DNA from: Candidatus Kuenenbacteria bacterium CG_4_8_14_3_um_filter_39_15
GTDB taxonomy: Bacteria; Patescibacteriota; Patescibacteriia; UBA2196; GWA2-42-15
Assembly: GCA_002782365.1 (NCBI GenBank)
Contig: PFHP01000034.1
Span: 392-24,697, forward strand
Length of the DNA stretch: 24,306 nucleotides
Direction: 5' to 3'
This document shows, in pieces, positions 419-15,308 of this stretch. The stretch's first letter is position 1. The number at the start of each line of letters is the position of its first letter. The position numbers and the translations under genes were made by a program. The notes under the pieces were generated by a model. That model was not told where the DNA came from and made no database searches. It saw only the letters and a program-made list of their open reading frames with translations.

Positions 419-1424
<1,006 letters not shown>

Positions 1425-1956: not shown

Positions 1957-1980
1957 AAACCCCACAAATGAGTGGGGTTT
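1957..1980 (+). terminator. Rho-independent terminator after rpsP
   Basis: 9-bp stem AAACCCCAC/GTGGGGTTT with a 6-nt loop, followed by a T-rich tract. Confidence 0.7.
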
Positions 1981-1985
1981 TAAAT

Positions 1986-2014
1986 TTGCTTTTTTCTTTT
2001 AATCTTGGCATAAT
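1986..2014 (+). promoter_or_regulatory. Sigma70-type promoter for valS (extended -10), probably leaderless
   Basis: TTGCTT(1986-1991)-N17-CATAAT(2009-2014) with TG at 2006-2007; ATG at 2022. Confidence 0.6.
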
Positions 2015-2021
2015 GAAAGAT

Positions 2022-4571
2022 ATGGAATTGCCAAAGGCATACATTCCAAAAGAATACGAAGATAAAATTTATAAAAAATGGGAAAATTCCGGATATTGCA
2101 ACCCGGACAATTTAGAAACGCGCGGCCAAGCGCGGTCTTTTACTATTTCCATGCCGCCGCCCAATGCGACCGGTGTGCTGCACATTGGTCATACATTGGG
2201 TATGACGATCCAAGACATTATGACCAGATACCATCGGATGCGGGGGGATAAAACACTGCTCTTGCCCGGCACTGATCACGCGGCTATTGCCACACAAAAT
2301 GTGGTGGAAAAAATGCTAAGAAAAGAAGGGACTTCAAGACATAGATTAGGCAGAAAAAAATTTTTAGAGCTGACAGAAAATTATGTAGAAAAAAATAAGT
2401 CAACCATAAATAACCAAACGAAAAAAATGGGCGCCAGTTGCGATTGGTCAAGAGAGGCTTATACTTTAAGCGACAAACTTTCGCGCGTGGTGTCAATGCA
2501 ATTTAAACAAATGTATGATGATGACTTGATTTATCGGGGGACAAGAATTGTTAATTGGTGCCCGAGATGCTGCTCAACCCTGGCTGATGACGAGGTGGAA
2601 TATAAAGAACAATCAGCGAAATTATATACTTTTAAATATTCAAATGATTTCCCCCTGGCCATTGCCACCACCAGACCGGAAACTAAACTGGGCGATACCG
2701 CGGTGGCAGTTAATCCTCATGACAAAAGATATCAAAAATACATTGGCAAAACATACCAGGTTGATTTTGTGGGAGTGCCTTTAAAACTAAAAATAATTGC
2801 TGAAAATGAGGTCAATCCTGAATTCGGCACGGGAGCAGCCGGGGTAACTCCGGCTCATTCTTTTGCGGATTCACTCATGGCTGAAAAAAATAATTTGGCA
2901 GTTAAAAAAGTAATCGGCCAGGATGGCAAAATTCTAGCCGGGTTTGGTAAATATTCTAATTTGAAAACAAAAGAGGCGCGGGAAAAAATTGTTGAAGAAT
3001 TAGAAAATGACGGGCTTTTAGAAAGCCAGAATGACATTAAAAATAATTTATCAATCTGTTATCGCTGTCACACAGAAATTGAACCGCTCCCCTCTTTGCA
3101 ATGGTTTGTGGCGGTCAATAAAGAATTTACCTTAAAAAATCCTGCTTTAATTAAAAAATACGGCAAAAAAGAAACAACCTTAAAAGAAATCTCGCTTTGG
3201 GCTGTCAAATCAGGCGAGATAAAAATAATCCCTGAATATTTTGCAAAAACATATTTTCATTGGATGGAAAATCTGCGTGACTGGTGTATCTCAAGACAGC
3301 TTTGGTTCGGGCATAGAATACCTGTTTACTATCGTAAACAGGCAATTTCCAATTTCCAATTTCCAATTTCCAAACAAATTCAAAATTCAATCCCCGACCG
3401 GATCGGGGACAAAATTCAAAATTCTATGGACGATATTTATGTCGGGGTAACCCCCAAAAAAGGTGGGGGCTGGGTGCAAGACGAAGATACATTGGACACT
3501 TGGTTCTCGTCTGCGCTGTGGACATGGTCAACACTGCTTGAGAAAAAAAATTTTGAAAAATTTAATGATCTTAAAGAGTGGCTAAAAAATAGTCCGGACA
3601 TAAAAAAATTCCATCCGACCAGCGTGATGGAAACAATGCACGATATTTTGTTTTTTTGGGTAGCGAGAATGATTATAATGACCCTCTATTCTTTAAATGA
3701 AGTGCCTTTTAAAACGGTTTATCTACATGGCATGGTGTGTGATAAACACGGTAAAAAAATGAGTAAATCGCATCCAGAAACATGCATTGAGCCCATTGAA
3801 ATGTCCCAAAAGTACGGCACTGATGCCTTGCGACTTTCTATGGTCTTGGGCAATGCGGCTGGTAACAGCCTGCGGCTGTCTGAACAAAAAATTGCCGGCT
3901 TTAGAAATTTTACTAACAAGCTGTGGAATATCGGCAGATTTATCCAAATGAAAATAAAAGATATTAAAGATATTGGGGATATTAAAGATATTCAATTAGA
4001 AACCTTGGCTGATAAGTGGATAATTAGTAAATTAAACAGCCTAATTAGGGAAGTGGCTGATGATCTTGAAAATTTTAGATTTGGTTTGGCCGGAGAAAAA
4101 TTATATGATTTTACCTGGCACGAATTTGCCGACTGGTATGTAGAAATAGCCAAGATACAAAATAATAAAAATACCTATTTACTAATTACTAATTACTATT
4201 TACTTCTTTTAAAATTATTGCATCCTTTTGCTCCCTTTGTGACTGAAAAAATCTGGGAGTATTTCGGCAGCGGCGATTTATTAATAATTGAAAAATGGCC
4301 TGAAGCGGATGAGAAAAAAATAACTGACCAAGCAGAGCAAGATTTTAAACTGATAAAAGAATTAATCAGCGCCATCCGCTCTTGGCGCAAAGAGAAAGCG
4401 GTTCAACCCAAGGAGATTATAAAAATCAAAGTCGCCGGCAGAGAAGAATTAATTAAAAACCAAAAAGAAGTTATTAATAGATTGGGGCGGGTTGAGACAG
4501 AAGAAGTTAAAAATATAGATAAAGGTGACTTGGAGATTGGGGGAGTAAAAATAAAATTTGGTAATTTGTGA
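2022..4571 (+). CDS. valS: Valyl-tRNA synthetase (start probably 2022 MELPKAY; ORF-track start at 1968 overlaps the terminator and promoter)
   Basis: PPPNATGVLHIGH (HIGH), PGTDHAAIATQ, CP1 editing domain ATTRPET...GTGAAGVTPAH, WCISRQLWFGHRIP, DTLDTWFSS, KMSKS, LLHPFAPFVTE. Confidence 0.98.
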   Translation: MELPKAYIPKEYEDKIYKKWENSGYCNPDNLETRGQARSFTISMPPPNATGVLHIGHTLGMTIQDIMTRYHRMRGDKTLLLPGTDHAAIATQNVVEKMLRKEGTSRHRLGRKKFLELTENYVEKNKSTINNQTKKMGASCDWSREAYTLSDKLSRVVSMQFKQMYDDDLIYRGTRIVNWCPRCCSTLADDEVEYKEQSAKLYTFKYSNDFPLAIATTRPETKLGDTAVAVNPHDKRYQKYIGKTYQVDFVGVPLKLKIIAENEVNPEFGTGAAGVTPAHSFADSLMAEKNNLAVKKVIGQDGKILAGFGKYSNLKTKEAREKIVEELENDGLLESQNDIKNNLSICYRCHTEIEPLPSLQWFVAVNKEFTLKNPALIKKYGKKETTLKEISLWAVKSGEIKIIPEYFAKTYFHWMENLRDWCISRQLWFGHRIPVYYRKQAISNFQFPISKQIQNSIPDRIGDKIQNSMDDIYVGVTPKKGGGWVQDEDTLDTWFSSALWTWSTLLEKKNFEKFNDLKEWLKNSPDIKKFHPTSVMETMHDILFFWVARMIIMTLYSLNEVPFKTVYLHGMVCDKHGKKMSKSHPETCIEPIEMSQKYGTDALRLSMVLGNAAGNSLRLSEQKIAGFRNFTNKLWNIGRFIQMKIKDIKDIGDIKDIQLETLADKWIISKLNSLIREVADDLENFRFGLAGEKLYDFTWHEFADWYVEIAKIQNNKNTYLLITNYYLLLLKLLHPFAPFVTEKIWEYFGSGDLLIIEKWPEADEKKITDQAEQDFKLIKELISAIRSWRKEKAVQPKEIIKIKVAGREELIKNQKEVINRLGRVETEEVKNIDKGDLEIGGVKIKFGNL
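3343..3423 (+). repeat. In-frame 7-mer tandem repeat plus palindrome module inside valS
   Basis: CAATTTC x4 perfect (3343-3370), degenerate CAAAATT units, TCCCCGA-ccgga-TCGGGGA (3391-3409), then CAAAATT x2 (3410-3423). Encodes AISNFQFPISKQIQNSIPDRIGDKIQNS. Confidence 0.92.
3957..3992 (+). repeat. 9-mer tandem repeat inside valS
   Basis: AAAGATATT, AAAGATATT, GGGGATATT, AAAGATATT = KDIKDIGDIKDI. Confidence 0.88.
4179..4206 (+). repeat. 7-mer tandem repeat inside valS
   Basis: TTACTAA, TTACTAA, TTACTAT, TTACTTC = LLITNYYLL. Confidence 0.85.
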
Positions 4572-14552: not shown

Positions 14553-15308
14553 TTACGCTAAATTAGTGTAATAATCGCTCACCTCATCAAGTTCATCAAG
14601 GCTGCCTAAAATTTTGGCCACCTTGGCCAATGTCTCATTATCAATGTCCTTGGGGTCTTTAGCGACCATCTCAAGACCAGCCGAATTTATTTTAACTCCT
14701 GAATTTTCTAATTTTTCTTTAACTGCTTTTAGTTCTTCGGGTCTGGTGTAAATAGTAAAGCCGTCTTCATCTTTAATATAATCCTCTGCTCCAGAGTCAA
14801 TAATTTTCATTTCTAAATCTCCCTGTTCCCTGTCTGCCCCGCCTTGTTTGACGAGGCCGGGGTTAATTGTTCCCTGTACATTGATTCTTATTACTCCTTT
14901 ATTCTCAAATTGCCAAGAGACACTATGCAGATCAACAAACTGGCCGCCATTTTTAGTGATGGCAGTTTTAATATCAGCCAGCGCCCTGTTTTTATTATCC
15001 GACAGGCATTTAATAATGACAGCAACTTGGCCGGGTAACAGTGCTCCATAAGTTAGATCTTCAATCACCGCTCCTTTTAATTCACCCGTGCCACGTTTGA
15101 TGGCGCGCTCAATATTATCTTTGGGCATATTGACAGCCTTAGCGCGCTCAATGGCTAGACGTAACTTAAAATTAGCCTCGGGGTCTGTCCCGCCCTCTTT
15201 AACAGCCACGGTGATGGTATTGCCAAGTTTAGTAAAAATATTGCCGCGCTGGGCATCTTTTGATTCTTTAGTTCTTTTAATGGTGGCCCATTTAGAATGT
15301 CCGGACAT
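14553..15308 (-). CDS. yebC: YebC/PmpR family regulator; start ATG 15308 MSGHSKW
   Basis: MSGHSKWATIKRTK...D..RGNIFTKL, GGTDPEANFKLRLAI..AKAVNMPKDNIERAIKRG, DNKNR, FENKG, GAED. Confidence 0.95.
   Translation of the reverse strand: MSGHSKWATIKRTKESKDAQRGNIFTKLGNTITVAVKEGGTDPEANFKLRLAIERAKAVNMPKDNIERAIKRGTGELKGAVIEDLTYGALLPGQVAVIIKCLSDNKNRALADIKTAITKNGGQFVDLHSVSWQFENKGVIRINVQGTINPGLVKQGGADREQGDLEMKIIDSGAEDYIKDEDGFTIYTRPEELKAVKEKLENSGVKINSAGLEMVAKDPKDIDNETLAKVAKILGSLDELDEVSDYYTNLA
14820..14877 (-). repeat. In-frame 7-mer tandem repeat plus palindrome module inside yebC
   Basis: On the + strand: TCCCTGT x2 (14820-14833), hairpin CCCCGCCTTGT-ttg-ACGAGGCCGGGG (14837-14862), TAATTGT, TCCCTGT (14871-14877). 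Encodes QGTINPGLVKQGGADREQG. Confidence 0.88.

Follow-up and report, generated by a model that had tools for sequence, protein, structure and literature searches.

An in-frame heptamer-repeat and hairpin module in valS of a Candidatus Kuenenbacteria genome belongs to a repeat family dispersed across its class

Heptamer repeats of cyanobacteria (STRR) were reportedly described by Mazel and colleagues in 1990, and small dispersed repeats (SDR) of 21-27 nucleotides (nt), which Elhai and colleagues are said to have described in 2008, lie nested in them. To our knowledge, the origin of dispersed heptamer repeats has gone unexplained since their discovery in cyanobacteria. Perfect tandem repeats of Borgs have likewise been reported, by Schoelmerich and colleagues in 2023, to create disordered protein regions. 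Here we describe a module of heptamer arrays and hairpins that lies in frame in valS, the gene for valyl-tRNA synthetase (ValRS), at positions 3321-3424 of a 24,306-nt stretch of contig PFHP01000034.1 of Candidatus Kuenenbacteria bacterium CG_4_8_14_3_um_filter_39_15 (hereafter the window, to which all feature coordinates refer). Two further systems invite comparison, namely Rickettsia palindromic elements (RPE), which are dispersed repeats lying in frame in Rickettsia genes (Ogata et al. 2000, by way of the MITE review PMC10969869), and REP/REPIN sequences with RAYT transposases, which are short GC-rich hairpins found genome-wide (PMC3116915, PMC3733652).

Rather than a local oddity, the valS module is a copy of a repeat that is dispersed in this genome and recurs across the class, and we consider it likely that positions 3321-3424 are a tolerated, read-through copy of this repeat DNA, living as DNA and not as protein. 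The genome that carries it (662 kb in 72 contigs, 39% GC, 85% complete) belongs to a strain found in groundwater and aquifer metagenomes, and the genomes of its relatives measure 0.6-1.4 Mb. A first-pass annotation made from the letters alone had described the module, and sequence reading together with a repeat search recovered all of its features in frame in valS at the positions claimed, including the perfect left hairpin and both kinds of heptamer unit (Table 1). What had been called a 19-bp palindrome is present as an element, not as a full palindrome but as a hairpin with short arms and a loop; the extra in-frame codons are likewise real, numbering 30 (90 nt) beyond the same-genus orthologue and not about 27. 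Conserved P-V-Y codons of the host form the left arm of the left hairpin, and an inverted copy of them, read as R-K-Q, forms its right arm. The CAATTTC array has no stops in any of the six frames and is read as ISNFQFPIS in valS.

The same DNA recurs in the genome and is read differently there. Three exact copies of the 19-nt hairpin were found, in valS, in pgk, and in a miaB-like methylthiotransferase gene (assigned by Pfam). The 80 nt common to valS and pgk are read as ..NSIPDRIGDK.. in the former and ..FNPRPDRGQ.. in the latter, while the miaB-like gene uses the valS frame. Because the same 80 nt are read in another frame in pgk, the insert must have been made at the DNA level, and because the two copies are read in different frames, the conserved unit is the DNA and not the peptide. 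The empty site of a same-genus relative and the other heptamers seen in family-level relatives (both below) also bear out the earlier claim that the sequence was generated at the DNA level.

Heptamers dominate the tandem repeats of this genome. Among perfect runs of at least 14 matched bases with periods of 2-21, there were 29 of period 7 and no more than 8 of any other period, compared with about 0.3 in locally shuffled genomes (a figure that counts perfect heptamer runs of at least three units). TRF assigned period 7 to 162 of its 739 rows. In all, 68 heptamer tracts were found, about 25 of them within long open reading frames (ORFs), with the units CAATTTC, AAATTAC, and AAGCAAT recurring across loci and the CAATTTC array occupying 5 places. 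Tract-bearing genes besides valS include those for PGK, TGT, an ELP3-like radical-SAM enzyme, and two GT2 glycosyltransferases (by Pfam). Strong hairpins number 146, of which 65 lie inside ORFs of at least 150 amino acids.

Across the class (301 genomes from 238 genera), (CAATTTC)x3 was found in 29 genomes and 27 genera at up to 9 copies per genome, with the reversed control giving 1 match. Long ORFs contain about 26 of 30 such loci, and the tract is read in each of the three phases and on either strand, as is possible because its unit is stop-free in six frames. The 25-mer spanning the junction of the two arrays was detected in 44 metagenome contigs, representing 26 distinct contexts beyond the strain's own valS and pgk. 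In four aquifer runs, hundreds of different flanks join the CAATTTC array, and the summed contig depth over the array reaches 5,000-70,000 compared with about 10-20 in the flanks. Both arrays and their junction recur in the relative L135, where two other hairpins, of 15 nt, sit exactly between (AAAATTC) units, which supports the earlier description of a palindromic element dropped inside the tract. The exact 19-nt hairpin gave 79 matches, each single, in 185,579 species genomes; 78 were outside the group, and the lone Saccharibacteria match had no heptamer flanks; the hairpin was not found in other small-genome relatives. From this search, the 19-nt hairpin is regarded as specific to the lineage.

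Table 1. Features of valS and its repeat module, in window positions.
Feature	Positions	Strand	Remarks
valS ORF	1968-4571	+	867 aa as listed; ValRS by Pfam tRNA-synt_1 (2.4e-114) and Anticodon_1
Perfect 9-bp inverted repeat with 4-nt loop	3321-3342	+	arms 3321-3329 and 3334-3342; repeat search and fold
(CAATTTC)x4.4 tandem array	3343-3373	+	100% matches, TRF score 62
80-nt block common to valS and pgk	3344-3423	+	1 mismatch; pgk reads another frame
Low-confidence AlphaFold stretch	3345-3431	+	residues 442-470 counted from the ATG at 2022; coil, beta-hairpin tip
Junction 25-mer CAATTTCCAAACAAATTCAAAATTC	3364-3388	+	begins within the last CAATTTC unit
Array junction and first (AAAATTC)-type block	3374-3390	+	AAATTCA x2.1 at 3376-3390
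19-nt GC hairpin	3391-3409	+	7-bp arms TCCCCGA and TCGGGGA, 5-nt loop; nested in the (AAAATTC) array
Second (AAAATTC)-type block	3410-3424	+	CAAAATT x2.1; right edge of module
GC-rich patch with short G/C stems	3441-3473	+	membership of module uncertain
Tryptic peptides predicted from the valS insert			QAISNFQFPISK, QIQNSIPDR, IQNSMDDIYVGVTPK

Comparison with orthologues (30 loci) locates the insert in a loop that is otherwise small. The span from WCISRQ to DTWF measures 75 residues here vs 45 in seven genomes, which read ..GHRIPVWYK-x-x-EIYVG.. and have just 4-5 residues between WY and IYVG, so that the loop is indeed normally short, as had been proposed. The same-genus relative G001, which served as the comparison for valS, pgk, and the miaB-like gene, has the 45-residue form, without the 90 nt (30 codons) and without the left hairpin; the two valS genes share about 95% DNA identity across 250 nt on each side of the insert. 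Its pgk also has no insert (72 nt or 24 codons shorter), with one AATTCAAAA seed remaining at the empty site, and no target-site duplication was found at the valS and pgk junctions when compared with these empty sites. Across valS, pgk, and the miaB-like gene, every indel of at least 17 nt that separates the two genomes is either a heptamer tract or a GC hairpin. On the evidence of these three genes, length change in essential proteins of ultra-small groundwater bacteria would come mainly from the gain and loss of repeat modules and not from point mutation. An old protein loop, shared as a peptide among orthologues with synonymous divergence, is not what these comparisons reveal, as G001 does without the insert and family-level relatives carry other heptamers.

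The ValRS insert position is a tolerant hot spot. Many relatives have low-complexity inserts of other heptamers at this site (AAACAAC, AAAAGTC with two hairpins, AAAAATC, and AAAAGGC), while other lineages have a four-cysteine (zinc) knuckle. In five orthologues (L012, L026, L027, L028, and L030, from genomes G004, G007, G008, G006, and G037), ValRS contains a complete His_Phos_1 domain (Pfam E 1e-26 to 1e-35) placed at the codon equivalent to window position ~3335, the exact site of the insert, and a different domain of about 110 residues with no Pfam match was found in the ValRS of L025, L027, and L021. An AlphaFold2 model built with 23 orthologues (mean pLDDT 85.7, pTM 0.84) has only one long stretch with pLDDT below 50, residues 442-470, which form a coil between strands 435-438 and 472-474. 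The insert is thus predicted to be a low-confidence coil at the tip of a surface beta-hairpin, in agreement with the surface loop for which a structure prediction had been proposed.

In L028, the ValRS domain is flanked by (AAAAATC)x4 and (AATCAGC)x4. Heptamer arrays were considered as agents of domain insertion and rejected in this role, as such bracketing is confined to one genus (L028 and, in part, L025) and does not occur in L012, L030, or L021. The bracketing arrays may be later arrivals at tolerant linkers.

As a unit, the module consists of (CAATTTC)n followed by (AAAATTC)n with a conserved junction and a nested 19-nt hairpin, preceded by an inverted copy of the last 9 host nucleotides. 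In valS it would be read as about 30 disordered residues tolerated by the enzyme, giving a peptide without a selected function. Selection would act only as a filter, with an intragenic copy surviving if its length is a multiple of 3 nt and its coding strand carries no stop. Such a copy would most likely arise by templated copying when DNA is repaired or replication restarts, with another locus as the template. The left DNA end would begin by snapping back, forming the host-derived hairpin, and would then copy a heptamer array elsewhere and rejoin the right end. Sites bearing arrays would stay unstable and be rewritten repeatedly.

The hairpin on the 5' side bears on such a route. Its arms covary in tract-bearing relatives (CCAGTTTAC/GTAAACTGG twice, CCGGTTTTCTA/TAGAAAACCGG, and one pair with G-T), and by our reading of the alignment, ValRS relatives without a tract at the junction appear to have no left hairpin. 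A perfect stem of at least 9 bp stands beside a random position in about 0.4% of controls. At (CAATTTC)x3+ loci in other genomes, a 5' stem of at least 6 bp was found in 7 of 29 (controls 5.6%, P ~9e-4) and one of at least 10 bp in 3 of 29 (controls 0.25%, P ~5e-5), while the 3' side of the same 29 loci had no excess of stems over controls. In the 26 metagenome contexts, 5' stems of at least 7 bp occurred in 7, compared with 2.5% of controls. This excess of hairpins made from host codons on the 5' side suggests snap-back copying.

Two other sites behave in the same manner. In TsaD genes from metagenomes (L191, L203, L211, and L224), the two-array module stands after H-I-Y-A-N-F and follows hairpins of 6-7 bp or 12-14 bp; three lineages are represented, with hairpins of different centres and lengths, all formed from local host codons. 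A WecG/TagA-type glycosyltransferase of family f3 (L160-L174) has a different heptamer tract in every orthologue after ADGYG(I/V)RLA.KY, with the units CAATTTC, AATTTTC, AAAAATC, GATTTCG, AATCAGT, and TTCCTTA. At this position, the codons R-L-A-S/G-K-Y form covarying hairpins in four genera, combined with three different heptamer units, and the site is a second rewritten hot spot. Because hairpin centres differ at one and the same site, repeated re-creation by snap-back fits better than one conserved ancestral hairpin.

A more far-reaching proposal is that small-genome groundwater bacteria write DNA directionally by a process not yet described, of which these modules would be the visible outcome. 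In it, a broken or stalled 3' end would snap back, be extended by heptamer arrays that are copied or templated from other places, and be rejoined, so that the same loop positions of essential genes are rewritten again and again. We put this forward tentatively and regard it as doubtful. If true, it would offer a possible entry route for new loops, and perhaps whole domains, into proteins such as ValRS.

Several observations weigh against a tolerated, read-through copy of dispersed repeat DNA, or against parts of that account. An empty allele from another family (L029) matches 6 of the 9 stem positions, and at valS the hairpin could therefore be partly older than the insert. Within the genome itself, hairpins adjoin tracts in only 3 of 28 cases compared with 2.5% of controls, a weak excess that turned into a clear signal only once loci of other genomes were added, and four of the seven hairpin-positive metagenome contexts are TsaD orthologues and hence not independent. 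The valS DNA beside the insert (~3325-3470) diverges from G001 more than the rest of the gene does, and the history of the site may have been one of patch or segment replacement or of recombination rather than of clean insertion. In line with translation, 20 of 23 coding contexts hold the two-array module, whose reverse strand contains TGA, in forward orientation; phase 1, that of valS, accounts for 15 of the 20, which a pure any-frame model does not predict, although the bias may be smaller than this count suggests, as some contexts are orthologous. We saw no transposase, target-site duplication, or terminal inverted repeat, and caught no donor-to-recipient event, so the copying route is a model. 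Metagenome contigs from Logan (k=31) break within the 31-nt array, and the exact number of units rests on the original assembly. Finally, both the translation of the insert and its passenger status are inferred from sequence, the former from the frame, the lack of stops, the orientation, and a 3-nt strain variant, and the latter from the different frames used and the congener that has no insert.

Among the alternatives, the one that survives best is that the hairpin and array are kept for a function, whether as an RNA or DNA structure pacing translation, transcription, or replication, or as a useful linker in ValRS. The arms do covary between genera at valS, WecG, and TsaD, phase use is biased (15 of 20), and the ValRS site is occupied in most relatives. 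However, a member of the same genus does without the insert, the same DNA is read in different frames, and a search of positions 3150-3600 against Rfam (E up to 1) gave no match. Units and hairpin centres also differ among lineages, which fits re-creation better than maintenance, and we consider a function of this kind unlikely.

Less probable still is a purely local origin, in which replication slippage within valS would have produced a low-complexity loop and nothing would have been copied from locus to locus. Tandem arrays do grow by slippage, the array units differ among orthologues at one site, and one seed is left at the empty pgk site of G001. Nonetheless, the 80 nt that match pgk include the non-repetitive junction and the 19-nt hairpin, which largely refutes this explanation, and the recurrence of the junction in 26 other contexts and of the CAATTTC unit in 29 of 301 genomes also speaks against it.

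It is highly improbable that the mature protein lacks the insert because of an intron-like mechanism, a translational hop, or protein splicing. In favour of such a mechanism, hairpins flank the insert. Against it, the copies read in long ORFs of valS, pgk, the miaB-like gene, and relatives keep the frame and contain no stops, ORFs rarely carry the orientation that has stops, only 3 nt are deleted in the strain variant, and neither intron or intein features nor an Rfam match were found. A programmed frameshift module was also considered and rejected, as the heptamer does not fit the slippery pattern X XXY YYZ and no stop interrupts the frame.

The assembly of the locus was examined in metagenomes. 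An independent metagenome contig of 12 kb (L193) shows this valS structure with valS on both flanks, and contigs of four runs tile the module with overlaps, in pieces extending to 3373, covering 3345-3418, and beginning at 3394. The depth of the bridging piece is about double that of the flanks, which is what the presence of a copy in both valS and pgk would give. In run X5, 3 nt are deleted in frame at 3421, at the right edge of the module; the Logan contigs drop rare variants, which limits the power of the four runs to reveal length variants. One contig, L213 (Ga0210030_1037410), is a chimera that joins the left flank of pgk to the right flank of valS through the shared 80-nt repeat, and because it was joined in this way, the repeat can be said to cause mis-assemblies. 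That the repeat was mis-joined into valS, or its length wrongly assembled, finds support in this chimera and in short-k contigs that break in the array, but it is scarcely credible given that valS continues in frame on both sides, that L193 and the tiled runs agree, and that relatives from other studies carry analogous inserts at the same codon.

Further features of valS complete the description of the gene. Its true start is probably the ATG at 2022, where orthologues start with MELPKAY or MDLPKAY. The GC-rich patch of 33 nt at 3441-3473 has the same length as in the G001 orthologue, with its sequence rewritten, and contains the pairable runs GGGG..CCCC and CCCCC..GGGGG. In the C-terminal half, a (TTACTAA)-type tract of 2.9 units (4179-4198) is read as LLITNYY in a helix region before LKLLHPF.

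Repeats and hairpins of related kinds were noted elsewhere in the genome. A yebC-like gene has an in-frame module on the minus strand (14820-14877), in which ACAGGGA units flank a CCCCGCC..GGCGGGG hairpin, an architecture like that in valS. The miaB-like gene (L032, G000:C47) contains (AATTTCA)x7.3 around a short insert at 871-919 and two adjacent 18-nt hairpins (41 nt) at 1523-1563 that are absent in G001, while the G001 gene has a 51-nt hairpin insert absent here. GC-rich hairpin clusters resembling REP/BIME lie in intergenic regions (C13:1927-2054, C38:5429-5530, C35:71-115, C42:691-741, and window positions 1026-1048 and 1526-1544) and fall into the families CCTCCCCT..AGGGGAGG, CCCCGAT..ATCGGGG, and GTCCCGCG..CGCGGGAC.

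Modules of this kind bear on genome annotation and alignment, on assembly breaks and chimeras at repeats, and on the origin of new protein loops. The one-sided hairpin of host codons provides a molecular signature by which population time series can test how dispersed heptamer repeats originate.

Judged by the features that define RPE, REP/RAYT, and MITE, the module is not a member of any of these families. Its ends are two different direct arrays, with no terminal inverted repeats and no target-site duplication, which sets it apart from MITEs. Nor does it behave as a phase-variable contingency locus, as the gene is essential and the only variant seen in four runs, whose contigs drop rare variants, is the in-frame 3-nt deletion. 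Like REP/REPIN sequences, the short GC hairpins here are repeated genome-wide and also form intergenic clusters. Unlike them, the copies are intragenic and nested in heptamer arrays, their flanks have no GTAG or CGTC tag, and no match to the Y1/RAYT transposase (PF01797) was found in the 85% complete genome, while control genomes were positive. A full-text literature search returned no paper linking heptamer or heptanucleotide repeats with the Candidate Phyla Radiation or Patescibacteria, a search on STRR found nothing, and the wider habit of such inserts appears not to have been described in print.

The likeness to RPE is closer. Both are dispersed short families found in frame in housekeeping genes of a small-genome bacterium, with no mobilising gene in sight and with presence or absence differing between close species; RPE are read through as surface peptides, as the module presumably is. 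In this genome, the hairpin module lies in frame in valS, pgk, and the miaB-like gene, and heptamer tracts lie within about 25 long ORFs. The architectures differ: RPE is a palindrome of about 100-150 bp, and the module is 80-90 nt long and combines direct heptamer arrays with a 19-nt hairpin. Moreover, the same DNA is used here in different frames, sites are rewritten with other units, and the phylum is another. With Borg repeats, the module shares perfect tandem repetition at the DNA level that adds disordered stretches and turns over fast. The genic units of Borgs are multiples of 3 nt, whereas the 7-nt unit here cycles through three frames, and only its total length must divide by 3.

In its organisation, the module resembles the cyanobacterial STRR and SDR, sharing dispersed arrays of a few recurrent units, tiny hairpins between units, locations inside and outside genes, and presence or absence between relatives. 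The genome-wide excess of heptamers that characterizes STRR is found here as well (29 runs vs no more than 8 for any other period, with units recurring across loci and in 29 of 301 genomes). An SDR-like hairpin between units, present in one genome and absent from another, is seen in valS, pgk, the miaB-like gene, and L135, with G001 as the genome without it. Compared by description only, the hairpins here are shorter (15-19 nt), the units are AT-rich, and the repeats are dense within coding sequence; as far as we know, an inverted repeat derived from the host on the 5' side has not been described for STRR or SDR.

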